Shown: one piece after another, positions 20,000 to 58,360 of the stretch | Layout of the letters: each line of letters starts with the position of its first letter | How positions within the stretch are numbered: position 1 is the first letter of the stretch | Source: Thermodesulfobacteriota bacterium | GTDB taxonomy: Bacteria; Desulfobacterota_D; UBA1144; Nemesobacterales; Nemesobacteraceae | Assembly (NCBI GenBank): GCA_965207685.1 | Contig: OZ242294.1 | Location: 1,226,677-1,290,676, forward strand | Direction: 5' to 3' | Length of the DNA stretch: 64,000 nucleotides | Made by a program: the position numbers and the translations under genes | The notes under the pieces: model-generated | Databases searched by the model: none | What the model was told of the DNA's origin: nothing | What the model saw: the letters and a program-made list of their open reading frames with translations, nothing else

Positions 20000-21560
20000 T
20001 AAAACAAGCGAAAAAAATAAAATCAAGTTTACTTAAATTCACGGGTTGCCTGACCGAGAGCTGCCTAATTTTACCTGTGCCATTGAGCACCTAGTTAGGA
20101 CAAGCGCCTCGGCCAGGCGCCGTGATAAATGCCCAGCAGGAAGTTCGTGCCCAAGAGCACCAGTACTGGTTCTGACAAGCATCACGGCAAACCCGAATTA
20201 AAAGGAGGTATTAGTTTACAATGAATAATCTTGAATCTCTATTTTTTGCGGGGATCGACTGGGGGAAAAGCTCCCACCAGGTCTGCGTCATTGACCCCGA
20301 AGGTTCCGTCGTCGGAGAAAAAAGCTTCAGACACACGGGAACCGGTCTTTTTGAAATGTCTCAGTGGATGAGGGAAGTATCAGGCCCTGAGAGCTGCGAC
20401 ATGGCCTTGGCCATAGAAGTGAACCACGGCCCCGTGGTGGAAAGTCTTTGCGAGCAGGGATTTATGGTTTATTCCATAAATCCCAAGCAGCTTGACCGTT
20501 TCAGGGACAGATTCTGCGTCTCTGGAGCCAAGGATGACAGAAAAGACGCCCTGGTTTTGGCCTCTGCGCTCCGCACGGACCGCAGACACTTCCGCCACGT
20601 TGAACCGCAGAATCCAGACGTCATAGTTCTGCGCGAACTCACCAGGACGAGAGAAGAACTCGTGAGAGAGCGCACGCGTCTTGTAAACCGTCTCCGCGTA
20701 CTGTTGTGGAGGTATTACCCCCAGTTCGAGGAACTTCTCGGCAGTACGGTAAGGCCATGGCACCTTGAACTGTGGGAGCTTATGCCCTGTCCTCGCGCGG
20801 CAAAAGGGAAAAGAGCCTCAACGGTACAGAAGATTCTCAAACGCAACAGGGTGAGGCGTATTGACGCCGAGGGAGCGCTCAAGATACTGCGGGCCGGGGA
20901 AATAAACGTGAGCGACGCGACCGTGAGCAGCTGCGTCTTCCATATAAGGTCGGTTGTCGAACGGTTGAAGGTGGCGGACCGTCAGCTCGGGGAAATCAAA
21001 GACTCTATAGACAAGGTTATAGTGACCATTAACGAAAAACTTAAGGCAGAAGGGAACGGGCCAACCGATATTGAGATTCTCCGCTCCATCCCCGGCGTGG
21101 GAACCGTGGTGCTCGCTACGCTTATTGCCGAGGCATGGAGTCTTGTGCGCCGTCGGGACTTCGAGGCGATTCGATGTCTCGGGGGCGTGGCTCCGGTGAC
21201 GAGACAATCGGGCAGGACAAAGCTGGTTGTCAGGAGAAGGGCTGTGTGCAGGAGCCTCTCGGCCGCGTTTCATGTTCTGGGCGGAGTGGCAGTAATCAAT
21301 GATCCGGCAAGCAGGGCAAAATACGAAGAGCTTCGGGGAAGGGGTCATGGTTACTGCAGATCCGTTCGCACCGTGTGCGACCGTCTTTTGTTCGTCGCCC
21401 GCGTCATTCTGAAAAAAGAGGAGTTGTTTGACAAGGAGCTCGGGAAACCTCTTCCGGACGCCGCGTAGTAAGGAACTATAGAGAAAAACCAGGGAGGAAT
21501 CTTAAAAAAAAGAAATTCGCTATATACATAAAATTTAAGCTTGTAAAAGACAGGAAGTCC
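20000..21560 (+). mobile_element. IS110-family insertion sequence (ends not defined; IS110 elements usually lack terminal inverted repeats)
   Basis: A single transposase gene flanked by non-coding DNA between aroA and a DUF2237 gene. The boundaries are approximate. Confidence 0.5.
20221..21468 (+). CDS. IS110 family transposase (DEDD-type)
   Basis: 415 aa. The N-terminal DEDD_Tnp_IS110 signature (GIDWGKSSHQVCVID) and the C-terminal Transposase_20 region (IPGVG...). Confidence 0.85.
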   Translation: MNNLESLFFAGIDWGKSSHQVCVIDPEGSVVGEKSFRHTGTGLFEMSQWMREVSGPESCDMALAIEVNHGPVVESLCEQGFMVYSINPKQLDRFRDRFCVSGAKDDRKDALVLASALRTDRRHFRHVEPQNPDVIVLRELTRTREELVRERTRLVNRLRVLLWRYYPQFEELLGSTVRPWHLELWELMPCPRAAKGKRASTVQKILKRNRVRRIDAEGALKILRAGEINVSDATVSSCVFHIRSVVERLKVADRQLGEIKDSIDKVIVTINEKLKAEGNGPTDIEILRSIPGVGTVVLATLIAEAWSLVRRRDFEAIRCLGGVAPVTRQSGRTKLVVRRRAVCRSLSAAFHVLGGVAVINDPASRAKYEELRGRGHGYCRSVRTVCDRLLFVARVILKKEELFDKELGKPLPDAA

Positions 21561-22037: not shown

Positions 22038-23258
22038 GTGAAATACCTTATACTACAAGGCGACGGCATGCCCGACCACAAGCTCCCAGAACTTGAAGGC
22101 AGGACTCCGCTTGAAGTCGCTGACACCCCTAACCTTGACGCGATCGCCAAGCGGGCCGAGATTTTCGGGATCGCAAAGACCATTCCCGACCCTCTTCCCC
22201 CGGGAAGCGACGTGGGAAACCTCGCGGTGCTTGGCTATGACCCGACGAAATACTACACGGGAAGATCCCCTCTCGAAGCCGCGAGCATAGGCGTCTCGCT
22301 CGGGGAAACGGATGTCACAGTCCGCTGCAACCTGGTAACCCTGAGCGAAGAAAATGGCCACACGGTGATGGAAGACTACAGCGCCGGACACATAGCGGAT
22401 GAGGATGCAGCCAGTATAATCGAGGATCTGAAAAAGGAGTTCGACGGGGAGGAGTTCTCGCTAAGCCAGGGGGTAAGCTACAGGCATCTTCTTCTCTGGC
22501 GAGGAGGAAACAGCGATATTCAAACAACCCCTCCTCATGACATTTCAGGAAAGAAAACCGCCCCATGGCTTCCTTCGGGAGAAGGGGCGGAAAAACTCGT
22601 CATACTCATGGAGAGATCCCGCAAGATACTGAAAGACCATCCCGTGAACAAAAAAAGAAGGACCGAGGGGAAAAACACCGCAGACTCCATATGGCTCTGG
22701 GGCGAAGGGACAAGGCCCGAGATGCCGTCCCTTTCAGAGCTTTACGGGATCACAGGATCCGTCGTATCGGCGGTTGATCTGGTAAAGGGAATAGGAATAT
22801 TCGCCTCGATGGAAGTAATCGAGGTTCCGGGAGCTACCGGGTACCTTGACACAAACTACGCGGGGAAGGTAAGCGGCGCGCTTGAGTCGCTGCAGCGCGT
22901 GGACCTTGCTATGATCCACATAGAGGCGACGGACGAAACGGGTCACGTCGGAGATGCCCGTCTCAAGATACAGGCGGTTGAAGATTTCGACCAGAAGGTA
23001 GTAGGACCCGCACTTGCGGGTATGGAGCAGTTCGGCCAATACAGGGTTCTAGTGCTCTCCGATCATCCAACCCCCATAGACCTGAGAACCCACTCAAACG
23101 AGCCCGTTCCCTTCGCCATACTCGATTCCGCAAACTCTTCGGTAAAAGACAACTCGCTTGTCTACACAGAGGACTGCGCCGCCGCAAGCGGGGTGTTCGT
23201 CAAAGAAGGCTGGAAGCTCATGGGAACACTTGTCGGAAAGCAGTACGTTCAAAGATAG
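22038..23258 (+). CDS. apgM: cofactor-independent phosphoglycerate mutase, archaeal type
   Basis: 406 aa with the metalloenzyme motifs of the ApgM/PF01676 family (LQGDGMPD, HIEATDETGH, LSDHPTP). Confidence 0.75.
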   Translation: MKYLILQGDGMPDHKLPELEGRTPLEVADTPNLDAIAKRAEIFGIAKTIPDPLPPGSDVGNLAVLGYDPTKYYTGRSPLEAASIGVSLGETDVTVRCNLVTLSEENGHTVMEDYSAGHIADEDAASIIEDLKKEFDGEEFSLSQGVSYRHLLLWRGGNSDIQTTPPHDISGKKTAPWLPSGEGAEKLVILMERSRKILKDHPVNKKRRTEGKNTADSIWLWGEGTRPEMPSLSELYGITGSVVSAVDLVKGIGIFASMEVIEVPGATGYLDTNYAGKVSGALESLQRVDLAMIHIEATDETGHVGDARLKIQAVEDFDQKVVGPALAGMEQFGQYRVLVLSDHPTPIDLRTHSNEPVPFAILDSANSSVKDNSLVYTEDCAAASGVFVKEGWKLMGTLVGKQYVQR

Positions 23259-24154
23259 TACTTAAGCCCGACCGTAACGGTCCAGTTGTCTGTGTCATCC
23301 ACCTCGAAATCTGACGTAAGGGGTGTAACTCCGTCGGCGCGCACGGGTTCGTGGTCCCGGACTTGCGTCCAGGACACATCGTCGCGGTCATAACCGCTAA
23401 AGCGCGTCCAGCGGACCTTGGCGCCAACTGAGAAATCGTCGCCAAGCGCGTAATCAACTCCGCCTACTAACTGGAAGCCAAATCTGGTCTTCCCAAGCGC
23501 GGTAGCTAAAGAGCTGGTCGTGCCCTCCGCGGCATCCTGCCACGGCTCCGTTCCCAAATCGCTCTTCCGCAGGAATTTCACCGAGTAGCGCATTTCCGTC
23601 GAGGCTATACCTATACCGGCTCCAACATAAGGCGTAAAAGGTGAGTCGTTGCGCAAGTCGTAGTAGGCGTTCAGGAAGAGATGATGAGCGTTCAGATCAT
23701 ACACACGTTCTGAAGGAGGGTCGTTCTCATCCCATTCGCTAGTCTTCTGATCAAGAGGGTCGTCACTGTCCGAACCGATGCGCACGAGCCTGCTCTCGGA
23801 AGCCTGACGGCGGTTAAGGTACTCCGCTTCAAAGCGCAGCCCGTTGCCAAGCGCATAGCCAAAAGTCGCACCACCCACATACCCCAGGCCGGGGCCAAAA
23901 ACATTCGCAACGGTGGATGCCTTATCGGCCGTACATTCCGCATCAGTCGGCGGAGTCGTACCTGAGGGATAAAGAAGGGAGTCGCACCGGGTCGGGTGAT
24001 TTATAAAGGAATGAGAGACATCCAAGTCTCCCGACTTTGAAAATCCCCCTTCAAGCCCGATATAGAACCTATCCTCAGCCGAAGCTGAAGACGAACCAAA
24101 GATCAAAAGCAAGGCCGCAAGCCAAAAACACGTATTTGCCGCCACATATCTCAT
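23249..24154 (-). CDS. outer-membrane beta-barrel protein (OmpA-like/porin superfamily)
   Basis: Signal peptide (AALLLIFGSSSASA). Alternating amphipathic beta strands and a C-terminal aromatic end (LKYYL). Confidence 0.55.
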   Translation of the reverse strand: MRYVAANTCFWLAALLLIFGSSSASAEDRFYIGLEGGFSKSGDLDVSHSFINHPTRCDSLLYPSGTTPPTDAECTADKASTVANVFGPGLGYVGGATFGYALGNGLRFEAEYLNRRQASESRLVRIGSDSDDPLDQKTSEWDENDPPSERVYDLNAHHLFLNAYYDLRNDSPFTPYVGAGIGIASTEMRYSVKFLRKSDLGTEPWQDAAEGTTSSLATALGKTRFGFQLVGGVDYALGDDFSVGAKVRWTRFSGYDRDDVSWTQVRDHEPVRADGVTPLTSDFEVDDTDNWTVTVGLKYYL

Positions 24155-28714: not shown

Positions 28715-31700
28715 TCAGAAGTTAACCTCCCCTCTCAGCATGACTCCATGCTCCGGCTCAGCAGTATCGCTCTGCCTGCGTTCTGTCTCAAGACTCAGGC
28801 TCGCGGAGCGCCCGAGATCAAGACGGCTTCCAAGCCTGTAGTGCTGCCGCCCGTCTCCGCCGAGCCTCAGGCCGCTGTATGGAGTAAGAAGTCCGTCTCC
28901 GCCGAGAGCAGCAAGCCCATAACCGAATTCCGCGTCAAGGTGCATATCATTGCCCCCGCCATCCTCAGACGAGAGCCCATCCACTCCACGCTCCCAAAGA
29001 CTGTCAACGCCGCTTGAGGTATCTCCCCACTCAGGCGCCACGCTGAACAGCACTCCCCGCTTGTCCGCCCCCGTATCGAAGATCACGGTTCCTCCCACGC
29101 CCCACTGGCTGAACTCCTCCGAGCTGTGTGCCGCAAGCCAGCGTCCCCTGCCCGAAATGCTGAGACCCAAGCTGGGGTTCTCATAGAGGAAACCTCCTCC
29201 TATTTCGACCCCCGTTCCCGTCTCCCCGTCTCCTCCGTCATGGCGAAGCGCTACCTCGACCAAGGGATTAAACCAGGTTCCGGACGCAAACCTGTACTCG
29301 TAGCTTCCCTCCATGCTGAGACGCAGTTGGTGCACGCCGAGCGACATCTCCTCGATCATGTAGTCGTCCCCCTCAACGTCCATCCACACCTTAAACGCCT
29401 CGCTCTTTAGCGAGAAAGTCGTGTCTCCCACGTCAAACACCCTGGCGCTTCCTCCCGCCGCCACCGATTTGTAGCTTAAATCGCTTGTGGCTACCTTCCT
29501 CGCACCCTCGTCGTCTATGTCTATTTGCCCACGCCCGTAGCCAAGCGCACTCCAGAGGTAAACATCTTCCGAGAGGAACCAGGAAACATAAGGAGACACG
29601 CTCACCATCTTGATATAGTAATCGCCCCTTCCTACTTCTCCCGGCGTCGTGTCCGTATAATCGAAATCTCCCTTCGTAAGAGACAGGGAAAGTCCCGTCA
29701 ACACCTTCTCGTTAAGCCACCTGTCAACTCCCATGTAGCCGCTCACGATCCGCCCGTCCCACTTGAACCATTCGTCACTTGCGACCGAAAAATTGTTGTA
29801 ATCCGCCTTGCCCCAGAATCCGATGCTTCCTCTTCTCTCGACGATCACGGGCTTTTGATCCTCGTCAACCCACATGTTGTTATCCGCAGAATCCTCCTGT
29901 GGAGACTCTCCGACGTGTCCTTTCGGGTCTTCTTCCGGATGCTTTCCCACATAGCCGCCTGGATCTTCCTGCGGATGTTCCTTCGGTTTCCTGAGCATAA
30001 CTCCGGCCTCTATTATGAATGAAGACCCGTAAAGCAGCTCCTCGAGGCTGAGAGCTTCCCACTGGTCAGGGTCGTCCCATATATCGGTTCCAATCACTTC
30101 GTGAAGGTTCGCGTGCTGATCCATAAGTCTGAACATCCCCGTACGCTCGTATGATCCCGAAAGCACGCTGTCAAGACGCCAGGTGAGGGCGTCAACCGAA
30201 TTCCTGAGCATGGTTCGCCCGAATGTGGGAAGGATTCTCAGGCTTGCGCGCCTTGCGCGCCGGATCTCTGTAGTGTTCGCCTCGGCCGTTGCTTCGGCTG
30301 AGGGGTCCCCCGGACCTACATCGTTCACCGCGCGCACCCTGAAAGAGTATACGGTGCCGTTTTCAAGGCCCGCGACCGTGTAGCTGGTTTCATTCGTCTC
30401 CCTGGAACCGCTCTGATCTATTGAGGTCCAGCCGCCGTAAGACCCGTTTTCCTCCTTCTGGCTGTACTCGTAACCGGTGATCGGCAGACCGCCGTTATCC
30501 GCAGGCCGCTCCCATACAAGAGTCACGCGCTGGTCCCCCGGCGTCGCTGTCAGATTCCGGGGCGCACCCGGCACTGTGGCGGGCGTTGCGCTTGCTGGCT
30601 CGGAGGCGGGGCCGGGACCAACGCTGTTTACCGCCCGCACCCTGAACCCGTAGGTCTCTCCATTGGTAAGCCCCGTGACGGTGTAGGAGGTGGTCGTTCC
30701 TCCTGTTGAGATCCACTCACCGTCATCAACCTTGTATTCATAACGCTCAATGGAGCTTCCTCCATTATCAGACGCATCCCAGCTAAGAGCTACCTCTCCA
30801 TTGCCCCGTGTCGCCATCAAGTTCCGGGGCGCACCCGGTACAGTGGTAAGCGTAACGCTTGCCGGCTCGGACGCGGGGCCGGGACCAACGCTGTTTACCG
30901 CCCGCACCCTGAACCCGTAGGTCTCTCCATTGGTAAGCCCCGTGACGGTGTAGGAGGTGGTCGTTCCCCCTGTTGAAACCCATGGGCCTCCATCGATCCT
31001 GTATTCGTAGCGTCCAATGGGACTTCCTCCATTATCGGGCGCATCCCAGCTAAGAGCTACCTCGCCATTGCCCCGTGTCCCCTCCAGGTTCCGGGGCGCA
31101 CTAGGTACCGTGGCGGGGGTTGCGCTTGCCGGCTCGGACGCGGGGCCGGGACCAACGCTGTTTACCGCCCGCACCCTGAATCTGTAGGTCTCTCCATTGG
31201 TAAGCCCCGTAACGGTGTAGGAGGTGGTCTTTCCTCCTGTTGAGGTCCACTCGCCGTCATCAACCTTGTATTCGTAGTGTTCAATGGGGCTTCCTCCGTC
31301 ATCGGGCGCATCCCAATTAAGCGTTGCCCTACCGTCCCCACTCATAGCCATCAACCCCGAAGGCGCACCCGGAAGCGCCGACGACGGGACGGGATTTCTC
31401 ACCTGCGAGGGCACTTTCGTATTTGAATCCGGAGATCCATTCTCATTCACGTCGGTCACGTTGATGGTCACCGTGATGGTACCAGTCAAGCCGCCCGGGT
31501 CCCGTGCGGTAACCGTAACCGTATAAATACGCTTGGGCCCCTCGTAGTCAAGGGCCGCCTTTGTCTGTATCTGCCCGGAAGTCTGGTCTTCAAGCGCAAA
31601 GGAAGCCGCATCCGTACCCCCAAGCGAATAGGTGAGACTGCCCCGGTCACCGGAGTCCGGGTCCGTAGCTGTAACCGCCGCACCGATATCTCTTCCAGGC

Positions 31701-33679
31701 GGCGTGTTCTCCGCCACAGAACGCGTGGCCGTGTTGGGCTGGAAGTAAGGCGCATTGTTTGACGGCGGCTCTACACGCGTCACAAGGTCAGAAATTGCGT
31801 ACGCCATTTTCCCGGAACCGCGCCGGTCCGTGTAGGTCACCTTTGCCCTCAGGTAATTGTCCACATCGCCCGATACCGGCGTGTAGGCGTTGCCGTTCGG
31901 GGTCCCGCTTACCGAACCCCAGCCATTCGTCCGGCTGGTTGACTTCTCCCATGTCCACGTTTCACCCGATACTGAACCGTCGGGATCGATTAGAGTCGCT
32001 TCAAGCTCCGTACCCACCTGTGGCTGCCTGGAAGAAAGAGTCACCTCTCCCTCTTCCTCCACATCGGTCACATTAATAGTCACCGTGGTCGTAATTTCCG
32101 AGGTCCTGTCCGTGACTTTAACCACCACGCCCGCATAAGAACTTTTGGTCTCGTAGTCAAGAGGCGCCTTGGTCTTTATCTGCCCGGAGGAATCAATATC
32201 AAATGAAAGTTTAGATACATCATCGAGCGAGTAGATAAGTGTTTCGTTTTCCGGGTCCGTAACCGCAATCGGTGTCCCGATGTCTACTCCAGGCCCCGTG
32301 TTCTCAGCCACAGAAAACATGTCCGGTGGGGGATCAGGATCAAAATAGGGCGCCCAGTTTACTGCCGGCACCTTTCCAGCGGACTCCGCCTCCGCGCTTT
32401 TATCAGGACCGTGGCCATCGGTATAGGAGGCCACCGCCCGCAGGTATTTATCTTCATCGTCTTCAACATTCGGGTCGCTGTCGGCAACCGGCGTGTAGGT
32501 TGCAGTCGTGGAACCGCTGCTCGTGGCACCGGTGATCGGATTCCAGTTGGTTTTGTCAGCTGACCTATACCATGTCCACTCCACATCCGTTATAGAACCG
32601 TCAGGATCAGTCAAAGTCGCAGTCAGCTCCTCATCTATTGCCAGCGTGCCGGACAGGGTCACCGTTCCAGGCTGATCTGGAGGAGGTACGCCTTCCGTCG
32701 TCGCGCTTGCTATGTTTGAAGGATCGCTTGTGCCCTCGGAGTTAATAGCAGAAACCTGGTAATGCCGCGTGTCTCCGGGAGAAAGACCGCTATGTGTATA
32801 CGTCGTGTCTGTATTGCCAGTGTCGTCTTCAAGATTCGTCCAAGAATAATTTGGGGGACCAGATGTTGAGACCTCGATTTTGTAGCCTTCCACGTAGGAG
32901 TTGGGAGCGCGCCACTTAAGCACAATCATGCTCTGCCCTTTAGGTTCCGCTTCCAGGTTCCTAGGCGGATCCGGAGCAGTGATGGAACAGACAACTCCCG
33001 CGTGTTCGAAGCTTCTGCAATTATGGGTGCCGACAGGAGTAGTAGACTGCCCAGCGCCCCTAGGACAATCAATCAGCCTCGTTTCAGTGCCTACGCAGAG
33101 AATATCGTCAAGCCAGAATTCATTGTTAGTCTTGTAGTCGCCCTTGGAAGAATCGATTATTGAAGGGCCGTCAAGCTCTAGCAGCGTCTTCGCGAATTCC
33201 GGCATATAATCCGAATGCTGACCACCTGTATCCTTCAGCTGCTTGCACGCGATTTCTGCGTCTTCGTCGGTGAAATAGTCATCGCATATTCCTCTCCACT
33301 CGGCATCGGTACCGTCATTATAATAAACTTCAAGCCTGCCTATGTCGGCCGTGACCGTACAGCTACTCGTGTTCGTGGTATCGCACAATCGAAGATCCCC
33401 GTTGCTCTGCGCATGCGCAGTTACGGAGAAAAACGCCAGCGGCAACAGTACTGCCAGCAGAAAGCAGACCCTGTCTCTCAGGCTTTCTGTTTTCCCAAGA
33501 AAGGGCGGCGGACGCAGAAACCCCCGCCCCTTCAGACAAAAGAGCGTTAACAGGGTTTCAAGTGCCTTGGTTTTTGCCCGGTTCGGGACTGGCTCAGTCT
33601 TTCTCTCGTCCGGATACGGGGACAAGAGGGATTTTCGCTGGCGCTCTACCGAAGAGACAAGCCGTTTATGTTCCACCAT
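28715..33679 (-). CDS. giant cell-surface protein: signal peptide, SRCR-like domain, FN3, 2x(Ig-like + cadherin repeat), 4x FN3, C-terminal autotransporter-like outer-membrane beta-barrel
   Basis: 1654-aa ORF. The hydrophobic signal segment LLAVLLPLAFFSVTAHA lies ~70 aa into the ORF, so the true start codon is uncertain. The SRCR consensus blocks are GRLEV.YNDG..WRGICDD, FWLDDILCVGTE..L.DCP and HNC...EHAGVVCS. The cadherin-like blocks are VAEN..PG..IG..V.A.DPD...L.YSL...FAID..SG.I.T...LDYE. Four FN3 repeats follow (WDAPDNGGSPI..YEY....GLTNGETY.FRVRAVN). The C-terminal ~520 aa are beta-rich and end in ...RGEVNF. Confidence 0.8.
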   Translation of the reverse strand: MVEHKRLVSSVERQRKSLLSPYPDERKTEPVPNRAKTKALETLLTLFCLKGRGFLRPPPFLGKTESLRDRVCFLLAVLLPLAFFSVTAHAQSNGDLRLCDTTNTSSCTVTADIGRLEVYYNDGTDAEWRGICDDYFTDEDAEIACKQLKDTGGQHSDYMPEFAKTLLELDGPSIIDSSKGDYKTNNEFWLDDILCVGTETRLIDCPRGAGQSTTPVGTHNCRSFEHAGVVCSITAPDPPRNLEAEPKGQSMIVLKWRAPNSYVEGYKIEVSTSGPPNYSWTNLEDDTGNTDTTYTHSGLSPGDTRHYQVSAINSEGTSDPSNIASATTEGVPPPDQPGTVTLSGTLAIDEELTATLTDPDGSITDVEWTWYRSADKTNWNPITGATSSGSTTATYTPVADSDPNVEDDEDKYLRAVASYTDGHGPDKSAEAESAGKVPAVNWAPYFDPDPPPDMFSVAENTGPGVDIGTPIAVTDPENETLIYSLDDVSKLSFDIDSSGQIKTKAPLDYETKSSYAGVVVKVTDRTSEITTTVTINVTDVEEEGEVTLSSRQPQVGTELEATLIDPDGSVSGETWTWEKSTSRTNGWGSVSGTPNGNAYTPVSGDVDNYLRAKVTYTDRRGSGKMAYAISDLVTRVEPPSNNAPYFQPNTATRSVAENTPPGRDIGAAVTATDPDSGDRGSLTYSLGGTDAASFALEDQTSGQIQTKAALDYEGPKRIYTVTVTARDPGGLTGTITVTINVTDVNENGSPDSNTKVPSQVRNPVPSSALPGAPSGLMAMSGDGRATLNWDAPDDGGSPIEHYEYKVDDGEWTSTGGKTTSYTVTGLTNGETYRFRVRAVNSVGPGPASEPASATPATVPSAPRNLEGTRGNGEVALSWDAPDNGGSPIGRYEYRIDGGPWVSTGGTTTSYTVTGLTNGETYGFRVRAVNSVGPGPASEPASVTLTTVPGAPRNLMATRGNGEVALSWDASDNGGSSIERYEYKVDDGEWISTGGTTTSYTVTGLTNGETYGFRVRAVNSVGPGPASEPASATPATVPGAPRNLTATPGDQRVTLVWERPADNGGLPITGYEYSQKEENGSYGGWTSIDQSGSRETNETSYTVAGLENGTVYSFRVRAVNDVGPGDPSAEATAEANTTEIRRARRASLRILPTFGRTMLRNSVDALTWRLDSVLSGSYERTGMFRLMDQHANLHEVIGTDIWDDPDQWEALSLEELLYGSSFIIEAGVMLRKPKEHPQEDPGGYVGKHPEEDPKGHVGESPQEDSADNNMWVDEDQKPVIVERRGSIGFWGKADYNNFSVASDEWFKWDGRIVSGYMGVDRWLNEKVLTGLSLSLTKGDFDYTDTTPGEVGRGDYYIKMVSVSPYVSWFLSEDVYLWSALGYGRGQIDIDDEGARKVATSDLSYKSVAAGGSARVFDVGDTTFSLKSEAFKVWMDVEGDDYMIEEMSLGVHQLRLSMEGSYEYRFASGTWFNPLVEVALRHDGGDGETGTGVEIGGGFLYENPSLGLSISGRGRWLAAHSSEEFSQWGVGGTVIFDTGADKRGVLFSVAPEWGDTSSGVDSLWERGVDGLSSEDGGGNDMHLDAEFGYGLAALGGDGLLTPYSGLRLGGDGRQHYRLGSRLDLGRSASLSLETERRQSDTAEPEHGVMLRGEVNF
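30545..31350. repeat. three tandem near-identical ~267-270 bp units (each encoding one FN3 domain) inside the giant surface-protein gene
   Basis: Near-identical ~110-nt stretches (GCCGGCTCGGACGCGGGGCCGGGACCAACGCTGTTTACCGCCCGCACCCTGAA...) recur at about 30596, 30861 and 31128. The ORF track also shows duplicated frame-shifted peptides at 30495-30716 and 30783-30983. Confidence 0.8.
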
Positions 33680-33884
33680 ATTAGCCGGTCTTTATATGAA
33701 GAATGCGGGGAATCCGAAAAAAAAGACAACCCGACTTTTCTTCAATGATTTTAGGCCTCGCACACGCACATACGAATGCCTGAGACCAAAAGAATCCTTC
33801 CGATTTAATCCGTTAAGGCGAAGCTTCGGTCGAATCGCCTGTTCCTACACAATATATTGTAGTAAAGTGAGTCTGCAGTGTCAA

Positions 33885-34013: not shown

Positions 34014-35207
34014 TTACCCCGTCGCCATCTTCCTTCTCTGTTCAGTTTCTTCCACGAGATTCCCTTCCCTGTCATAAAACCCCAGCCTGCGTTTCCCTTC
34101 ATGAAACACCCCTATGCTCCCATCCTCGTACTCATGCACCGCAACCTTCGCCCTCACGAAGTGATAACGATCCTTAACCGGCGGGATCTGCAAACTCATA
34201 CCCCTGTACCTGACACAATTGTCGTTGCCCACTGCCCTTGTGTGCTTAAGACACAGTATGTCATCCAAACCCACTCCGAGCAGCGGTACGAACGCACTGC
34301 CTTCCTCAGCCGCCGCTACCGCGAAACGCCCGTTGAAATCCCCTATAAAACTCTCCGAGAGAAACCTGTTCGCCTCCTCCATATCCTCTATACCCCTCTC
34401 CTCCAACTCCACAGGCAACCGCCCCTGCAACGTCTTGAACATCCTCTCGCTTCGCCCCCTTGCCTCAGGGGAGTATCCCGGAATCATTAAAACGCCCAGC
34501 TCGGCCATCGCTCTTCCAAACTGCGTGGGATTCTCCTTGTCAACCCGCCCCCCGGCCCGGGGAGTACTCCAGTAATGAGACCCTCTGTCACTGTAGAAAC
34601 TTGAGAATATGCCCTCACTCTCCAATACCTCCCGCACACCCCTCATGCTGCTCTGTGTGCCCTCCTGGGCACAGAAGAAAGCACTGTATATCCGCCCCGT
34701 GGCGTCATCCATGGTCACTACAAGGTCCCACACCTCCCGGGGAACCCACCTGTGAGTGCTCGCATCCTGATGTATCATCTCCCCCTCTCGCTTCTTGCGT
34801 TCCCTCAGCTCCCGGTGCGGCCCGCGGCGGCGCCCCCTGGGAACCGCTCCCGCATCCTGCAGACACCTCTTAACCCAGCTGTAGCCGCGGGTGCCCCCGT
34901 GGCGCTCTGTGTATGCCTCGTAGAAATGCCTTATGTTACGATTCGGATAACAACCCATGTATAGCTCCACTACCTCCGAAACCTCCTGCGGTGAAGCACG
35001 CCGAGGTGATGTCCTGCCCAAGCGCTTGTCCGAAAGTCCTTGTCTTCCCCACGCTTCGTAACGAACCACGTAGCGGCGGAAGGTCCTCTCGCTCATCTCA
35101 AGCTGCTCCCCGGCTTCTGCCTGGGTGAACTCCCTCTGCTTCCATCTGTTGTATACAGACTCAAACCGGTTTGCCCTGACCATCTGCAAATACCTTGACT
35201 GATCCAT
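34014..35207 (-). CDS. DDE transposase (N-terminal HTH + rve/integrase core)
   Basis: 397 aa. HTH region (LEMSERTFRRYVVRY) and DDE residues in the contexts IHQDAS, VTMDDAT and SPEARGRSER. Confidence 0.8.
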   Translation of the reverse strand: MDQSRYLQMVRANRFESVYNRWKQREFTQAEAGEQLEMSERTFRRYVVRYEAWGRQGLSDKRLGRTSPRRASPQEVSEVVELYMGCYPNRNIRHFYEAYTERHGGTRGYSWVKRCLQDAGAVPRGRRRGPHRELRERKKREGEMIHQDASTHRWVPREVWDLVVTMDDATGRIYSAFFCAQEGTQSSMRGVREVLESEGIFSSFYSDRGSHYWSTPRAGGRVDKENPTQFGRAMAELGVLMIPGYSPEARGRSERMFKTLQGRLPVELEERGIEDMEEANRFLSESFIGDFNGRFAVAAAEEGSAFVPLLGVGLDDILCLKHTRAVGNDNCVRYRGMSLQIPPVKDRYHFVRAKVAVHEYEDGSIGVFHEGKRRLGFYDREGNLVEETEQRRKMATG

Positions 35208-41280: not shown

Positions 41281-41871
41281 ATGATGAACCATTCAACAGA
41301 AGATACAATGTCGCTTGATCCCGATGAGGTGCGAGGCCTAAAATTCAAGCACATAACGACGCGGAGCGAACTGAATCATCTGGAACAAGCCAACATCCAA
41401 AGCGGCATAGCATGGATGCGCCAAAGCAGACGCACTGACCTGCTGTCGGAAGGTTACGTATGTCAACTGCATAGACGTCTGTTCGGCGAAGTCTGGTCAT
41501 GGGCAGGGACATTTCGTCATACAGGCAAGAATATCGGGGTTGACCCACTCTATATTGCCGTAGAACTGCGCACACTGCTTGACGACATGAAATATTGGTT
41601 CAACAATGAAACCTATCCGCCGCGCGAAGCGGTAATCCGCTTCCATCATCGTCTGACGGCAATTCATCCCTTTCCCAACGGCAACGGTCGTCATGCCAGA
41701 ATCATGGCGGACGCACTGCTCATCAAATTGTACAAACTACCAACCATAGACTGGGCCGGAGGCCATGATCTCGCTTCTATGAACAGCAGGAGAAAAACCT
41801 ACATTCAGGCGTTGCAAGCGGCGGATAGAGGCAATTACGAGCCCCTGCTCGCATTTGCGGGTATCAGGTAA
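41281..41871 (+). CDS. mobile mystery protein B (Fic/Doc family; TIGR02613-like)
   Basis: Canonical Fic motif HPFPNGNGRHAR (HxFx(D/N)GNGRxxR), 196 aa. Immediately downstream of protein A. Confidence 0.8.
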   Translation: MMNHSTEDTMSLDPDEVRGLKFKHITTRSELNHLEQANIQSGIAWMRQSRRTDLLSEGYVCQLHRRLFGEVWSWAGTFRHTGKNIGVDPLYIAVELRTLLDDMKYWFNNETYPPREAVIRFHHRLTAIHPFPNGNGRHARIMADALLIKLYKLPTIDWAGGHDLASMNSRRKTYIQALQAADRGNYEPLLAFAGIR

Positions 41872-54548: not shown

Positions 54549-55208
54549 CTAATAATAGTATCTCATTCCACTTCGGAAAATACTGAATTCGCTTCGAATC
54601 CCCTCCTTTATACGATCATAGTATTCTGTCTCACCCCTCTGCCATTTCCGAAACACAGCCCAGCAGCAGTAATCCGCGACCTGCAGTCCGTAGTGCGAAC
54701 GCGACGCGTGATGCAGGATGTGATATCTCCTGCCCTGCGGCAACATCTTCGCCAACGCGAGCTGGACACCTTTTTCAATCGCCCGCCTTTTCTTATTAAC
54801 CGGAACCGTATCAGTTATTACTATGACATCGTCAGCGTCCTCCCCCAACTGGGGAACAAGGAATTTTAACAGGTATCCGAGCATTTCCGGGTAGAAGCGC
54901 TTTACATCCTGAAGGGCCGGGCCGGTTTTTCTTTTCTCAACTACAAGACAGTCAATACGCATGCTTCCAAGATTTCTGGCGATCAGATCAAATATGCTGT
55001 TGCGGACGTGAATGTTGTCTTCTGAGCAGTGGAAATACTCCATCCCCAAGCCGTATTCGAGACAATCGTGTCTGTAGGCGTCAAGCTTCTGGTATATAGG
55101 AAACGGTCGGCGCATACTGATGCTCGTCAATATAAAGTAAGGCGTTCCGTTTGTGCTGAAGTCGAGATTGCCCGCTTCATCAAGAAAAATGTAAGTGCAG
55201 GGTGTCAT
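54549..55208 (-). CDS. DUF3800-domain protein
   Basis: Start at MTPCTYIFLDEAGN. The N-terminal YIFLDE.G and C-terminal GLQVADYCCWAVF are the two hallmark motifs of DUF3800. Confidence 0.6.
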   Translation of the reverse strand: MTPCTYIFLDEAGNLDFSTNGTPYFILTSISMRRPFPIYQKLDAYRHDCLEYGLGMEYFHCSEDNIHVRNSIFDLIARNLGSMRIDCLVVEKRKTGPALQDVKRFYPEMLGYLLKFLVPQLGEDADDVIVITDTVPVNKKRRAIEKGVQLALAKMLPQGRRYHILHHASRSHYGLQVADYCCWAVFRKWQRGETEYYDRIKEGIRSEFSIFRSGMRYYY

Positions 55209-55550
55209 ATTCTTTCCTTCCACAAGACCCGCCCAGTCCGGCAAAATCGTAAAAAGCGTGGAAACCGGACTGGATACCCGCTTCAAGGCTTGATCCAACT
55301 CCGCTTATTTCCAGTGAACTCCTTTGCCGTTAACAATCAAGAAGCGGCTGGTTGAAGTAGAAATTCAGCAGATTGATCTTGGAAAATACCTGATCGGCAT
55401 TCTCAAACCAATAATGTTTTTCAGTAAGGAAAAACCTGATTCTCTCGCACCCTGTGGACTAACCGGATTCGCCGTTCCTGGAAAATTTCTCAAAAAAAGA
55501 TATGGACATTCGGTACTAATTGTAATACACTGTATTTCAAATATCAAAAA

Positions 55551-56963
55551 ATGGACAAAAAAATAAAGGATGCCAACAGGAAAAACCAAGAAAAGACCCG
55601 GGAGAAAAACCCCTTGATCGGACTCCGCGTAAAGAAACTCAGCGACATCCCTCCGCCCGCGGGAATAGCCATAGGAGAGGGCGTCGCGCTTGACTGCGAT
55701 CCCGAAACAAAGCCCGCCCCGGTAACGGTTCCCGACGCAGACCGCGAGGGACACATATTCACCATGGGCGCCACGCGAAGCGGAAAGACCCGCCTCGCCG
55801 AGGGCATGATAGAGCACGATATAAGGGCGGGGAGAAGCATCCTGTGGATAGACCCCAAGGGGGATAACGCTATTTTCTCAAAAATAGTGGCCACAGCCAG
55901 GGAAACAGGAAGGGAAGAGGATCTTCTTTTCTTCTCCCCGGTTTTTCCCCGCTACTCGGTAAAGATAGACCCTCTCTCTCACTACTTCATGCCCGAGGAG
56001 GTCGTTAACCACGTCGTCTCGGGAGTACGGGTCCGCGAGGAGTTCTACTTCAACATAGCCTACGAGGTGACGCTCGTCGTGGTGCAGGGACTCATGCTGA
56101 TATCGAGATCCCTCGGGGAGCGACCTATGTTCACCTTCCGCAGGATAAAGGAGAACATAGGCTACAGGGAACTCGAGGGCCTTCGCGCCCAGATAGCCGA
56201 GATAGACGATCCCGAGGCGGAGGAGATCCTCATGAACCTCGACCAGATCCTATCCTCTCCCCAGGACTACTTCTCCAAGGTCTCCTCAAGCCTCCGTACC
56301 GTGATAACGTCGCTTAGCTCGGGTTCGGTGGGAGAAATCATCGGCAAGGACACATCAAACCGGTTCATAGAGCGCCTTGAGGCGGGAAAGAGAGTGATAC
56401 TCGTCGTGCAGACAGGCTCACTTCTCACCAGGAAAACGGCGCATATAATGGCGCGGGTGCTTCTCTCCATGGTGCAAAGCTTCGTAGGCAGGGTGCTGGC
56501 TTCTCACCGGAAGATCGACCCTCCCTTAGCAGTGTACGCAGACGAGGCGTCAAATGTCCTTTACTTCGGGATAGACGACCTTTTCAACAAGGCGGGCGGA
56601 GCCGGAGTGTGGATTCACATGCTGACCCAGAGCAAGCAGGATCTCGTGGCCGAACTCGGCCCAGCCTACACGGGCAAGATACTCGACAACACGAACACCA
56701 AGGTAGTTTTCCGCGTTAACGACCCCAACACCGCAGCCTACGCCTCCCGCATGGCCGGGACGAGAAAAAGATTCTCCCCAATAATGAGTCTCGGCGGGGG
56801 TCTCAGCTTGAGGGAGATAGAGGAGAGCAGGGTGCCGCCCGAGAGCTTCCTTAGGCTCGGGCGAAGGGAGTTCTACGCCTTTACCTTCGACGGCATATAC
56901 AGGGGCAGGACCCTCGATGTGAGTCCGTGCGAGGAAATACGGTTCCCGGAGATAAAAAACTGA
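55551..56963 (+). CDS. traD: type IV coupling protein-like ATPase (TraD/TrwB/VirD4 family) without N-terminal transmembrane anchor
   Basis: Walker A GATRSGKT followed by ILWIDPKGD, Walker B VYADEAS, a TQSKQDL sensor, and a TraG-D_C-like NTNTKVVFRVND. The N-terminal 60 aa are charged and not hydrophobic. Confidence 0.7.
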   Translation: MDKKIKDANRKNQEKTREKNPLIGLRVKKLSDIPPPAGIAIGEGVALDCDPETKPAPVTVPDADREGHIFTMGATRSGKTRLAEGMIEHDIRAGRSILWIDPKGDNAIFSKIVATARETGREEDLLFFSPVFPRYSVKIDPLSHYFMPEEVVNHVVSGVRVREEFYFNIAYEVTLVVVQGLMLISRSLGERPMFTFRRIKENIGYRELEGLRAQIAEIDDPEAEEILMNLDQILSSPQDYFSKVSSSLRTVITSLSSGSVGEIIGKDTSNRFIERLEAGKRVILVVQTGSLLTRKTAHIMARVLLSMVQSFVGRVLASHRKIDPPLAVYADEASNVLYFGIDDLFNKAGGAGVWIHMLTQSKQDLVAELGPAYTGKILDNTNTKVVFRVNDPNTAAYASRMAGTRKRFSPIMSLGGGLSLREIEESRVPPESFLRLGRREFYAFTFDGIYRGRTLDVSPCEEIRFPEIKN

Positions 56964-56986
56964 TGAAGGAGAAAAGGAGAACCAAA

Positions 56987-58360
56987 ATGAAGTACCTACC
57001 GCAAGTGGCGATCAGCTGGGAGACGGCAGCCGCGTTTTCGCTTCTCTGCTTCTCCCTGGGCGCGACCTTCTGCGCGCTTGCGCTAAGACGCAGAAGAGAA
57101 AAACGAAGCGGACCCGAGACAATAGAGTTCATAACGGCTTCGGCGGCGAGAGCCTCGCAGAGACAAGACGGCGCAGAATCAGGAACCATAGGAGCTCTCG
57201 CGGAGAGCCTCTGGCTGAGAAGCGATCCCGGGCTTGCGGTGCTCTCGGATTCAGAACCTTTGGTCGTAACCACCTTCAAAAATCCAGAGACCCAAACTTT
57301 CTGGACAGAAGAGATAGAACCCAATCGCCGACTCTTTGAGAAAAGACGCGAACTTGCGGTAATAGAGAGGGTTCTCCTAGAGCTTGATGAACATGGCCTC
57401 TGCTCAAGTGTCGTTTCTGGGGACGGGAAAAGCGCGTTTTTGCCAACTGCAAAGAGATTCTCGCGCGTTACCCTGCTTGACCACTCGCTTCGGGTAGCGC
57501 GGTGCATGAGGGGAATATACGATTCGCTCTACACGGAGAGAATTCTCTACGGGAAGCATCTCATCGCCGCTCTCGCCCACGATGTCGGAAAAATGGAGCA
57601 CCTGCGCCCCGAAGACAAGCGCTACATAAAGGATGACCACGCGGCGGCATCGGCAAGAGCGCTTAACGGTTGGATAATGGAGTGCGGGGGAGAAAAAGCC
57701 GCTTTTGAGTTTCGCTCCGCGGTGGACGCCGTCAGGAACCATCACAGAAGCGCAAACGCACCCGATCCCATTCTGGAGAACCTCAAAAGAGCGGATACGG
57801 CGGCACGGGAGGAGGAATTCTCGGGCGTGCGCAAAAAGCCACGCCCGGCGGCCGCGCCCGACGGCGGCACGGATGCCGAACCACCCGGGTGGCTCCTTCG
57901 CGACATGCCCCAGATACTAAACGACCATGTGGGGCCCGCAATAAACATGGCGGCACTCGAGGAGGCTCCCTTTGCCCGGGCGATCTCCTCCACAAACGGG
58001 ATCGTCTACGTCGATCCCCACTACCTTTTCGACGGCGTTAGGGAGCATATGGAGCGGGAGGAGATAGCGGACATGAGATTTTTCGACCCGTCCCGCCCCG
58101 CGGAGCTTCAGGCAAAGCTCCTGGTAACAAACTCACTTAAATCCCGCAACTGGGTGGGCGAAGGAGTTCGCGACGGCTACTACGCTGCCTTCTGGAATTA
58201 CGAGTATAGGGGGAAGAAGGTAAGAAAAGGCGGTTTCTGGATACCCGTTTTCGCGGAAGCGTTTGAAGTGCCGCTTTCCGAACTTGAAAAAAGAAAAAAC
58301 GCGGAGCTTCGCCGGATCACTTCCGTTGGGCCGTGTCTTGCGCGGGGACGGAAAAAATAA
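56987..58360 (+). CDS. membrane-anchored HD-domain (metal-dependent phosphohydrolase) protein
   Basis: Start at MKYLPQV. It is preceded by GGAGAAAAGGAG and follows the coupling-protein stop. One transmembrane helix (AAAFSLLCFSLGATFCALAL), then HD motifs H...HDVGK. The region upstream of this start is arginine-rich. Confidence 0.55.
   Translation: MKYLPQVAISWETAAAFSLLCFSLGATFCALALRRRREKRSGPETIEFITASAARASQRQDGAESGTIGALAESLWLRSDPGLAVLSDSEPLVVTTFKNPETQTFWTEEIEPNRRLFEKRRELAVIERVLLELDEHGLCSSVVSGDGKSAFLPTAKRFSRVTLLDHSLRVARCMRGIYDSLYTERILYGKHLIAALAHDVGKMEHLRPEDKRYIKDDHAAASARALNGWIMECGGEKAAFEFRSAVDAVRNHHRSANAPDPILENLKRADTAAREEEFSGVRKKPRPAAAPDGGTDAEPPGWLLRDMPQILNDHVGPAINMAALEEAPFARAISSTNGIVYVDPHYLFDGVREHMEREEIADMRFFDPSRPAELQAKLLVTNSLKSRNWVGEGVRDGYYAAFWNYEYRGKKVRKGGFWIPVFAEAFEVPLSELEKRKNAELRRITSVGPCLARGRKK

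Follow-up and report, generated by a model that had tools for sequence, protein, structure and literature searches.

We describe a gene, in a 64,000-nucleotide stretch of bacterial DNA (hereafter the window), whose product is probably a type Va autotransporter adhesin of Candidatus Dadabacteria, itself probably a sponge symbiont. The protein would display a single scavenger-receptor-type (SRCR) domain at its tip, binding a host or polyanionic ligand through cations. We consider this reading fairly probable; it is drawn from sequence comparison, domain profiles and structure models. The features on which it is built are listed here in the direction of transcription.

33856..33884, minus strand: sigma-70-type promoter, TTGACA-17 nt-TACAAT, 11 of 12 consensus positions matched
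33680..33849, minus strand: conserved 5' leader of ~170 nt with hairpins, promoter to ATG, found in seven aligned sequences
28715..33679, minus strand: whole ORF, 1654 aa plus stop, ATG start
33485..33679, minus strand: basic N-terminal extension (pI 10.2), residues 1-65, uncertain whether translated
33410..33484, minus strand: putative signal-peptide core, residues 66-90 (RDR-VCFLLAVLLPLAFFSV-TAHA, then Q), from sequence reading only
32972..33409, minus strand: SRCR head, residues 91-236 (PF00530), with six canonical and two extra N-terminal cysteines and a ~25-aa family-specific insertion
32684..32971, minus strand: FN3 domain 1, residues 237-332 (Pfam fn3; pLDDT >90)
32345..32683, minus strand: Ig-like beta-sandwich module A, residues 333-445 (W-x-W ... 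YLRA ... YTD motif), from the model
32045..32344, minus strand: cadherin domain A, residues 446-545 (PF00028)
31745..32044, minus strand: Ig-like beta-sandwich module B, residues 546-645, paralogue of module A
31430..31744, minus strand: cadherin domain B, residues 646-750 (PF00028, best stretch 654-742)
30260..31384, minus strand: four FN3 domains, residues 766-1140 (Pfam fn3)
29810..30259, minus strand: linker, residues 1141-1290, a confidently modelled 34-residue alpha-helix followed by ~100 poorly modelled residues
28718..29809, minus strand: C-terminal beta-barrel translocator, residues 1291-1654, ending ...VNF

Integrity of the gene

The first-pass annotation, made from the letters alone, had described a single 1654-aa ORF as the largest gene here; it is indeed the longest ORF in the window and occupies exactly 28715..33679 on the minus strand. 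Could such a mixture of animal-like and bacterial parts be an artefact, a chimera of host SRCR and bacterial adhesin created by mis-assembly, or a decaying pseudogene? Such damage is seen elsewhere in the family. A few truncated or split members exist in other assemblies (P0139, of 193 aa, and P0123, of 1246 aa, on one contig), P0287 and P0325 carry frameshift-like tails, and SRCR-rich host scaffolds are present in assemblies of similar kind. Against such an origin, the identical protein (P0121) is recorded from a separate 1.90-Mb contig, and an orthologue of equal length and 93% identity lies on a 1.52-Mb chromosome. The gene is present in seven Candidatus Dadabacteria genomes. Six loci match over the full length and the seventh nearly so (residues 66-1654, a contig end cutting off the rest), and neighbouring genes are common to all six loci for which both flanks are available. 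Compared with the closest orthologue (L001), dN/dS is 0.20 for the whole gene and 0.13 for the SRCR domain, and the GC content of the gene is continuous with its flanks, the FN3 repeat excepted. Synteny, the separate 1.9-Mb record of the identical protein and the dN/dS values make a pseudogene or chimera extremely improbable, and we reject it for the window. The frameshift or assembly chimera against which the annotation had warned has left no sign, and the gene, judged on these comparisons, is real and under purifying selection.

Diversifying selection was likewise rejected for the pair formed by the window and its closest orthologue, every segment giving a dN/dS of 0.12-0.47. Non-synonymous change in the passenger runs ~2-4 times faster than in the neighbouring genes, and the differences lie mainly in module number. 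Across the loci the SRCR domain directly follows the signal peptide, L006 being the exception with its SRCR domain ~2 kb inside the gene. The gene's syntenic place is between the fer4 gene and accAD; its neighbours serve housekeeping and offer no clue to function. Further paralogues were found neither in the window nor within 10 kb around the related loci; one other genome carries two copies of the family gene.

The leader and the amino terminus

The promoter hexamers stand at the same place in seven aligned sequences (the window plus six loci), a single -10 base differing in L007. In the 5' leader, which has no match in Rfam, seven predicted pairs stay paired through two-sided changes among the seven sequences.

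How the first 65 codons are used is less plain. All seven sequences keep an open frame, with in-frame indels and an invariant ATG context. Third positions, however, show no excess of changes (0.20/0.21/0.24), and a dS of only 0.06 suggests that it is the nucleotide sequence that is constrained; residues 1-65 may belong to an untranslated leader rather than to the protein. We looked for a start codon nearer the signal peptide and rejected the one candidate, an in-frame TTG in the window (residue L61), as it is not conserved in the other loci. An ESPR-type extended signal peptide was also rejected, since neither ESPR nor any other Pfam family matches the N-terminal extension. The signal peptide itself, which the annotation had placed at the start of the ORF, stands in part: a hydrophobic core is seen, with a maximum of 2.63 at residues 71-85 (Kyte-Doolittle, 15-residue window), followed by an AXA-type site (AHA-Q), but ~65 residues of uncertain coding status precede it.

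An SRCR head with an acidic cluster

Behind the signal peptide the annotation had suspected an SRCR-like domain, and Pfam agrees. PF00530 matches residues 114-232 with 48.8 bits in the whole-protein scan and with 54.4 bits when the N-terminus is scanned alone (gathering score 26.1 in both cases), and the region of residues 91-236 is modelled confidently (pLDDT 80-93, insertion excluded). Sequence matches of the head among solved structures include CD163, neurotrypsin (query residues 23-141, E 4e-10), MARCO and DMBT1. A fold search with the four-domain N-terminal model returned mostly tandem FN3 structures and identified neither the head nor the Ig-like module individually.

Identity between SRCR domains of orthologues falls to as little as 36%, and yet C132, C145, C195, C205, C221 and C231 are kept in 26/26 family members and align to the cysteines of CD163; we take this six-cysteine pattern to be that of SRCR 'group A'. 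All eight cysteines of the mature protein lie within the SRCR domain, and the stalk, linker and barrel are cysteine-free. Equally constant are D133, D134, D191, N220 and E225, again kept in 26/26 members, with D192 kept in 23/26. These six residues presumably correspond to the site residues of SALSA, a mapping made by motif (CDD / LDD / HNC / E-x-AGV) through the CD163 alignment and the SALSA SRCR consensus, not by a direct SALSA alignment. On this reading of the sequence the acidic cation/ligand cluster of animal SRCR domains is retained, five of its six residues being invariant. In SALSA/DMBT1 the cation and ligand site comprises D1019, D1020, D1058, D1059, N1081 and E1086, and binding to hydroxyapatite, heparin and a bacterial protein is lost upon the substitutions D1019A and D1020A (PMC7043408).

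A modular stalk

The annotation had proposed one FN3, two (Ig-like plus cadherin) units and four FN3 domains, and Pfam and the models show this order to be right in every module. Pfam fn3 matches five stretches (E 2e-64) and cadherin PF00028 two (E 4e-25, 88.5 bits against a threshold of 28.8), and the sequence contains the calcium-type cadherin motifs AEN, DPD/DPE, LDYE and VTDV[NE]E. Within the membrane-proximal FN3 array, Tandem Repeats Finder detects three domains (30555..31315) as a repeat with a period of 267 nt, 2.9 copies and 87% matches. The Ig-like modules A and B, of ~100 aa and one before each cadherin domain, have no match in the Pfam library used; they are modelled as beta-sandwiches with pLDDT mostly >90 and are 40% identical to each other. 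Many giant proteins of bacteria contain this module in alternation with cadherin domains. The pair of FN3 domain 1 and module A aligns to solved tandem FN3 pairs. As a whole the passenger is strongly acidic (pI 4.3).

A probable classical autotransporter anchor

PF03797 (Autotransporter) emerges from a separate scan of the C-terminal 515 aa, with 34.9 bits (gathering score 26; E 1.8e-8). It was missed in the whole-protein Pfam scan, and fragments from the C-terminal half of the barrel gave nothing when scanned alone; the precomputed Pfam lists of many homologues contain it. The protein ends in ...GVMLRGEVNF, and NF is likewise the end of every listed family member whose C-terminus is complete. 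A profile built from the barrel alignment matched, among solved structures, only the Calx-beta passengers of relatives. Foldseek comparison with solved barrels gave compact alignments with target-normalised TM-scores of only 0.54-0.71.

Upstream of the barrel a helix is predicted, as in solved translocators (AlphaFold, model residues 2-35, pLDDT ~91), with the unusual feature of ~110 poorly modelled residues between the two. Model residues 38-79 and 114-133 fall below a pLDDT of 50. The poorly modelled part contains degenerate HP-x-EDP-x-G-x-VG repeats, and the linker is 74-95% identical among orthologues.

Which type of autotransporter is this? The annotation had left the choice between autotransporter and inverse autotransporter for its beta-rich C-terminus ending in ...VNF. 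The anchor itself stands, with PF03797 and the terminal aromatic residue in its favour; the inverse option does not. The passenger lies N-terminal of the barrel in one polypeptide, in the order SRCR ... FN3, linker, barrel, and the order of type Ve proteins, an N-terminal barrel followed by a C-terminal passenger, is not the one found. Display by the type Va route is, from domain order and profile match, well supported.

Distribution of the family

In ~26 relatives the SRCR head and a nearly constant barrel are kept and the stalk varies, with 1-4 cadherin, 1-4 Ig-like and ~2-5 membrane-proximal FN3 domains. All genomes found with the family are MAGs of Dadabacteria or 'Thermodesulfobacteriota'. 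Relatives of the barrel carry Calx-beta, FN3 and VCBS-type passengers, which are typical of marine adhesins.

Searched against 1.84 billion cluster representatives, the SRCR domain matched no more than 3075 proteins (E <= 0.001). Among the 150 best of these 3075, most carry many SRCR copies, as in named animal and sponge proteins, and SRCR is otherwise almost absent from prokaryotic sequence. Among the matches listed, SRCR together with PF03797 occurs only in the Dadabacteria family and in one alphaproteobacterium-like protein (P0315), which bears out the earlier statement that an SRCR module on an autotransporter-like anchor is rare in bacteria. The nearest non-family SRCR domains sit on eukaryote-like scaffolds, the only named ones among the matches listed coming from the sponge Halichondria panicea, and none of the domains listed exceeds ~47% identity to the head. 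Our literature search found no paper that places SRCR in a bacterial autotransporter, and none that reports it from a sponge symbiont; the sponge literature found discusses SRCR only as a host domain.

Possible functions at the cell surface

A close homologue of the protein is annotated in Candidatus Dadabacteria MAGs, and such MAGs are regularly recovered from sponges. SRCR domains number in the hundreds to thousands in sponge genomes, where FN3 and Ig domains often accompany them (PMC4772301), and sponge symbionts show an enrichment of FN3 and cadherin proteins (Robbins et al. 2021, PMC8163846). From the MAGs of the relatives and the nearest foreign SRCR matches, the bacterium is probably sponge-associated. 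A role in host interaction, suggested already in the first-pass annotation, is what we infer, and the context favours it.

In the mechanism that we propose, with its export steps taken from what is known of the family, the protein would cross the inner membrane in a Sec-dependent manner by means of its N-terminal signal sequence. The Bam complex would recognise the terminal ...VNF strand and insert the barrel into the outer membrane, and the passenger would reach the surface with its C-terminal end first and its N-terminal end last. Instead of a beta-helix, nine cysteine-free beta-sandwich modules (FN3, twice Ig-like/cadherin, four FN3) are predicted to form a stalk tens of nanometres long, calcium-stiffened at the cadherin junctions, with the single SRCR domain held away from the cell at its far tip. 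The head's most likely partner is an anionic ligand, contacted through bound Ca2+ or Mg2+, for which sponge extracellular matrix, sulfated glycans, aggregation-factor-like molecules and a host cell-surface protein come into question. The bacterium would thereby become attached within host tissue, and the protein may also make it resemble the host's own SRCR/FN3 surface proteins. In evolution the head and barrel appear to be kept, with the number of stalk modules shifting through repeat duplication and loss.

Need a host be involved at all? The protein might be a general adhesin for polyanions, particles or other cells, serving co-aggregation, biofilm formation or substrate capture without host mimicry, and its ligands might be bacterial envelopes, sulfated algal or mucus polysaccharides, or a mineral- or silica-associated matrix. 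The breadth of the SRCR cation site, whose very diverse anionic ligands extend from hydroxyapatite and heparin to surface proteins of bacteria (PMC7043408), speaks for this. So do the acidity of the passenger, the marine-adhesin company of the barrel and the links of cadherin and FN3 modules in bacteria with biofilm formation and the binding of carbohydrates (PMC8163846). We nevertheless think it unlikely, if credible. The confinement of the family to Dadabacteria and 'Thermodesulfobacteriota' MAGs argues against it, as do the near-absence of SRCR from other prokaryotic sequence, the eukaryote-like SRCR scaffolds in the very assemblies that supply the nearest foreign matches, and a pairing of SRCR with FN3 and Ig that mirrors sponge surface proteins (PMC4772301).

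A host-like SRCR domain, displayed or set free by cleavage, might instead act as a decoy or blocker that competes with SRCR pattern-recognition receptors of the sponge for microbial or opsonic ligands, so that the symbiont is less readily recognised and phagocytosed. Cleavage and release are known for some type Va passengers, and the strict conservation of the ligand-site residues would suit such a role. Sponge SRCR proteins, moreover, are thought to mediate microbe recognition and to respond to symbionts (PMC4850255; PMC4772301). Several observations nonetheless make a decoy quite improbable: neither a cleavage motif nor a protease domain was identified in the protein, a single domain at the tip of a long stalk suits an anchored adhesin more than it does a secreted factor, and with at most ~47% identity to the non-family SRCR domains listed, the head is too divergent for a closely copied host receptor. 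The anchored, SRCR-tipped adhesin of a probable sponge symbiont thus remains the reading that we prefer.

Relation to known proteins

Compared with classical type Va autotransporters (AIDA-I, NalP, Hbp, EspP, BrkA, EstA), the passenger is predicted to consist of FN3, Ig-like and cadherin sandwiches with an SRCR head, and not of a beta-helix. At ~365 aa and with 18 predicted beta segments, the barrel region is ~100 aa longer than in solved type Va proteins (~250-280 aa, 12 strands). The protein is further set apart by the ~110 poorly modelled residues between helix and barrel, by an N-terminal leader of ~90 residues that lacks the ESPR motif, and by a disulfide-rich tip. The type Ve proteins intimin and invasin offer a likeness in overall design, in that a distal binding domain is carried clear of the outer membrane on a rod built from Ig-like domains.

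With the animal SRCR proteins (SALSA/DMBT1, CD163, MARCO, neurotrypsin and those of sponges) the protein shares the domain family, the six-cysteine framework and the acidic cation/ligand site, and with the sponge SRCR/FN3 'multiadhesive' and SSC5D-like proteins the company of FN3 and Ig modules. It differs in having one SRCR domain, with a ~25-aa insertion and two extra N-terminal cysteines, and in carrying it on a bacterial outer-membrane anchor. The FN3/cadherin proteins of sponge symbionts, proposed to mediate attachment within the sponge, resemble it in stalk modules and probably in ecological setting; SRCR is unmentioned there (PMC8163846), and the anchor type is defined here. An SRCR head on an autotransporter stalk is a design that we found in no paper, made of components of kinds already known, and we regard it as a new variant.

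How do sponges tell resident symbionts from food bacteria? The question is open, with host SRCR proteins and 'eukaryotic-like' proteins of symbionts as the two main suspects. Through the present gene the symbiont itself would carry an SRCR domain with an intact ligand site, exposed at the end of a defined machinery for surface display. Its 146-residue head, together with the predicted knock-outs D133A and D134A, makes a clonable reagent with which ligands could be sought and mimicry be distinguished from adhesion.

Export of the head raises a puzzle for type Va secretion. Autotransporter passengers reportedly tolerate only small disulfide-bonded loops, and the SRCR domain would bring three long-range disulfides. 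Because these would sit in the last part to leave the periplasm, export of the head needs explaining, and the apparently enlarged barrel may bear on it. A bolder proposal would make SRCR-tipped autotransporters a recurrent invention of sponge symbionts, in which an SRCR domain captured from the host is mounted on an adjustable stalk, exported by an enlarged barrel (~365 aa, up to 18 strands) with a long leader, and engages or mimics the sponge SRCR system so that the bacterium avoids being eaten. We offer this as speculation and think it rather unlikely.

Comparison with an alphaproteobacterium-like protein

P0315, the single protein outside the Dadabacteria family that combined SRCR with PF03797 among the matches listed, has 1286 aa and comes from an alphaproteobacterium-like contig. 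It shares with the Dadabacteria protein a PF03797 barrel, a long N-terminal leader and an SRCR domain that follows immediately on the putative signal-peptide cleavage site, with the motif AQ-SGD[IL]RLCD and 36% identity. P0315 differs in its four SRCR domains, which alternate with Calx-beta-like modules, and in its lack of FN3 and cadherin domains. Since the two barrels share only a weak local match (26% over ~100 residues), the proteins are not simple orthologues. A third bacterial contig encodes a giant surface protein that is related and has SRCR, but lacks an autotransporter barrel.

A single intact gene for a probable modular surface protein

Window 28715..33679, minus strand: adhesin ORF, 1654 codons from an ATG start, the longest ORF in the window

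The first-pass annotation had read this gene, the biggest in the window, as a single 1654-aa ORF encoding a signal peptide, an SRCR domain, one FN3 module, two Ig-like plus cadherin units, four further FN3 modules and a beta-rich C-terminus ending in VNF. The coordinates and the VNF ending were exact. In Pfam scans of the full-length protein, three families exceed threshold: SRCR (PF00530, residues 114-232, 48.8 bits against a gathering score of 26.1, rising to 54.4 bits with the N-terminus scanned alone), fn3 (PF00041, five matched stretches, E 2e-64) and Cadherin (PF00028, two stretches, E 4e-25). The autotransporter beta-domain PF03797, the fourth profile proposed for checking, was not reported for the full-length protein and passes when only the last 515 residues are scanned (34.9 bits against 26, E 1.8e-8); many homologues have it in their precomputed Pfam lists. 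Two modules of ~100 residues, one preceding each cadherin domain and 40% identical to one another, had no Pfam match in the library scanned. An AlphaFold model of residues 88-545 (mean pLDDT 88) renders them as beta-sandwiches, and in Foldseek they align, together with the FN3 before them, to solved structures of tandem FN3 modules. Pfam, AlphaFold and Foldseek results therefore bear out the proposed domain order module by module.

Could so composite a protein be an assembly chimera or a pseudogene? The same protein, 100% identical, is recorded on a 1.90-Mb contig (P0121), an orthologue of equal length and 93% identity lies on a 1.52-Mb chromosome, and the gene is present in seven species-level genomes. 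Gene neighbours agree in all six loci for which both flanks are available: a fer4 protein, the adhesin gene, fused accA/accD, an M24 peptidase, MazG, an outer-membrane beta-barrel protein and phosphoglycerate mutase. Comparison with the closest orthologue gives a dN/dS of 0.20 over the whole gene and 0.13 for both the SRCR domain and the barrel, with neighbouring genes at 0.04-0.19. The adhesin is a conserved chromosomal gene under purifying selection. The ORF is not split, and the identical protein, the 93% orthologue, shared synteny and the dN/dS of 0.20 make a chimera or pseudogene very unlikely. In other assemblies, a family gene is split in two on one 201,668-bp contig (P0139 and P0123) and two members, P0287 and P0325, end in frameshift-like tails; sequencing error, pseudogenisation or on/off switching could account for these.

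Features of the surrounding locus are as follows.

Window 34014..35207, minus strand: transposase-type ORF of 397 aa, between the fer4 gene and the adhesin promoter
Window 23249..24154, minus strand: outer-membrane beta-barrel protein of 301 aa (OMP_b-brl/Opacity-like), four genes downstream of the adhesin
Window 20221..21468, plus strand: IS110-family transposase
Window 41281..41871: Fic protein
Window 54549..55298: DUF3800 protein
Window 55551..61760, plus strand: conjugation/type IV secretion block with TraG/VirD4-like coupling protein, TraK and TrbI

The transposase-type ORF carries HTH_28/29/32 domains and a weak IS481 leucine-zipper match, and occurs in the window genome only. Because the syntenic loci covering that side have a 368-nt intergenic gap in its place, it is probably an insertion element directly upstream of the adhesin promoter. 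A hairpin follows its stop codon. The 301-aa beta-barrel gene is kept in all six loci reaching that far, split or partly matched in three of them (L004, L006 and L007). The remainder of the window holds housekeeping genes together with the IS110 transposase, the Fic protein and the conjugation genes, which suggest an integrated conjugative element.

The homologue search returned about 26 relatives that are built alike: a leader, SRCR and FN3 come first, then cadherin (1-4) and Ig-like (1-4) modules in alternation, about 2-5 membrane-proximal FN3, a linker of ~150 aa and a 364-aa barrel. Among orthologous loci, identity is 86-97% in the barrel, 74-95% in the linker and 36-93% in the SRCR head. 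Three FN3 modules of the window protein form a 267-nt tandem array with 87% matches, which accounts for the drift in copy number. Judged from these alignments, the translocator and the presence of a head are fixed, and the variable parts are stalk length and surface residues.

Promoter, leader and the first 65 codons

Window 33884..33856, minus strand: near-consensus promoter TTGACA-17-TACAAT, conserved in seven aligned sequences (the window plus six loci)
Window 33680..33884, minus strand: the promoter with a leader of ~170 nt containing conserved hairpins

The leader is conserved in the same seven sequences, with some compensatory base-pair changes, and matched no Rfam family. The ATG context is invariant, and in seven of seven sequences the frame is open for ~65 codons upstream of the predicted signal-peptide core, every indel being in frame. 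Third-position excess is absent from these codons (0.20/0.21/0.24, near the values of the non-coding upstream region), and their dS is 0.06 against 0.17 for the whole gene, measured against the closest orthologue; they behave like nucleotide-constrained sequence. The extension they would encode is basic (pI 10.2) and has no Pfam match to ESPR, and no conserved alternative start codon was found across the aligned loci. Because an open frame stands against absent third-position excess and low dS, the stretch would be either an unusually long basic signal-peptide extension or, in part, a constrained mRNA leader.

A probable type Va anchor with an apparently enlarged barrel region

Window 29950..30060, minus strand: degenerate HP-x-EDP-x-G-x-VG repeats, residues about 1230-1262, poorly modelled

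The AlphaFold model of the last 515 residues (57 diverse sequences; mean pLDDT 75, 83-97 over most of the barrel) has a 34-residue helix, then ~100 residues modelled poorly, then a beta-barrel. In solved type Va barrels, 12 strands take up ~250-280 residues, whereas the modelled barrel region has 18 DSSP beta segments in ~365, and Foldseek target-normalised TM-scores for compact alignments reach only 0.54-0.71. Also atypical for type Va autotransporters are the ~110 residues between helix and first strand, which include the degenerate repeats; a stretch resembling these, between linker helix and barrel, is conserved in the family. The top Foldseek matches are barrels of 12-14 strands, and the porins listed score poorly, evidence against a true barrel of 18 strands. 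On the opposite side, the best PF03797 stretch places 208 of 255 profile positions on the first nine segments only. The barrel has 66 relatives with Calx-beta, FN3 or VCBS-type passengers, the two named ones being MAG proteins from Paracoccaceae and Gammaproteobacteria.

Support for placing the protein in the type Va family comes from the sequence profile, the fold ranking, the topology and the C-terminal signal. The first-pass annotation had allowed for an autotransporter or an inverse-autotransporter barrel; PF03797, fold ranking and topology uphold the classical type and not the inverse one. Intimin and invasin likewise hold a binding head at the far end of a rod made of Ig-like domains; the adhesin works similarly but lies outside their family.

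The SRCR head and its putative cation site

By sequence, the head matches solved SRCR domains of CD163, PIT54, neurotrypsin, MARCO, DMBT1, SCARA5 and Mac-2 binding protein. Unlike these, it carries an insertion of ~25 residues, not shared by the aligned eukaryotic sequences, and two additional cysteines at its N-terminal end, which 17 of 26 members retain. The mature protein has eight cysteines, all of them in the head; there are none in the ~900-residue stalk, the linker or the barrel. The canonical C132, C145, C195, C205, C221 and C231 are invariant in the 26 family members, as are D133, D134, D191, N220 and E225; D192 is kept in 23.

The motifs CDD, LDD, HNC and E-x-AGV were mapped through the CD163 alignment, rather than a direct SALSA alignment, onto what we take to be the SALSA SRCR consensus. 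On this mapping, D133, D134, D191, D192, N220 and E225 would correspond to D1019, D1020, D1058, D1059, N1081 and E1086 of SALSA/DMBT1 SRCR8. In SALSA this set of residues coordinates two cations at the surface, which form the bridge to anionic ligands; with D1019A and D1020A, binding to hydroxyapatite, heparin and a streptococcal protein is lost, and CD6 and CD163 use the same site (PMC7043408). Because the putative site is strictly conserved against a divergent background, our strongest evidence, we take the head to be a working ligand-binding module. Profile, cysteines and putative ligand site together support SRCR family membership.

Habitat, display and candidate ligands

The related loci come from MAGs titled Candidatus Dadabacteria or 'Thermodesulfobacteriota bacterium', and NCBI Candidatus Dadabacteria MAGs contain a close homologue under the label 'autotransporter domain-containing protein' or 'hypothetical protein'. 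Sponges regularly yield Dadabacteria MAGs (PMC8163846; PMC12648040). Outside the family, the nearest SRCR sequences come from scaffolds on which short ORFs are sparse and SRCR exons stand in tandem, as in a eukaryotic genome by their look, and the only named close SRCR matches, among those listed, are proteins of the sponge Halichondria panicea. Together these make a sponge-symbiont lineage probable, short of proof for the window genome. Three long scaffolds (L012, L013 and L014), on which ORFs are few and short and SRCR exons come in runs, look like eukaryotic, probably sponge-host, scaffolds gene-called as prokaryotic; they supply many 'short SRCR proteins' of the protein collection.

By analogy with type Va autotransporters, Sec would export the protein across the inner membrane, the Bam complex would insert the barrel into the outer membrane, and the passenger would reach the surface C-terminal end first and N-terminal end last. 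Nine beta-sandwich modules would fold outside the cell into a stalk of roughly 35-45 nm, estimated from typical module lengths, which calcium may stiffen at the cadherin junctions; the calcium-type motifs AEN, DPD, LDYE and VTDVNE are visible in the sequence. The head would emerge last, at the tip, and by analogy may bind an anionic ligand via bound cations. Jong et al. 2007 and Leyton et al. 2011 reportedly found that type Va passengers tolerate small disulfide loops only, so the long-range disulfides of the head need an export explanation: the head might be kept reduced in the periplasm, it might be oxidised only outside the cell, or the barrel might be enlarged.

What would such a head bind? 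We infer the function of the protein and favour a host component as ligand, because the habitat is probably a sponge, because sponges have a very large SRCR repertoire paired with FN3 and Ig domains (PMC4772301; PMC4850255) and because FN3 and cadherin proteins are enriched in sponge symbionts (PMC8163846). The main rival to a host ligand is binding to polyanions in general, or binding between cells; the protein may also act as a decoy.

SRCR domains in other bacterial contexts

The first-pass annotation had called an SRCR module on an autotransporter-like anchor rare. The SRCR search supports this: of 1.84 billion representatives, only 3075 proteins match at E <= 0.001, and among the best 150 of these the majority carry many SRCR copies, as animal proteins do. 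A literature search turned up no description of a bacterial autotransporter with SRCR, nor of SRCR in a sponge symbiont, and the sponge studies consulted treat SRCR solely as a host domain (PMC4772301; PMC4850255).

In one further protein, P0315 (L015 8001..11861), four SRCR domains and Calx-beta-like modules alternate ahead of a PF03797 barrel. Its contig carries era, rnc, lepB, acpS, pdxJ, spoT and rpoZ, in what we take to be an alphaproteobacterium-like order. The first SRCR domain opens with the motif AQ-SGD[IL]RLCD, as in the adhesin family, and the barrels give a weak local match only (26% identity). P0315 would be a second SRCR autotransporter, unrelated-looking to the adhesin.

Because the type Va and SRCR memberships are supported and the literature search gave no description of the combination, we rate the adhesin as belonging among autotransporter adhesins and the eukaryotic-like surface proteins of sponge symbionts, not in a new category. 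Every part comes from an already known family. The earlier reading is sharpened, with support, to a classical type Va anchor, a conserved putative SRCR ligand site, a lineage of probable sponge symbionts and a design that recurs in a second lineage, a finding that is notable and directly testable for specialists in sponge symbiosis or type V secretion.

The 1.8-Mb contig of P0406 (L016 6001..15813) gives a third bacterial context for SRCR: this bacterial protein of 3270 aa combines several SRCR domains with Big_12 and fn3_6 modules and adjoins a 3190-aa Calx-beta/SWM-repeat protein.
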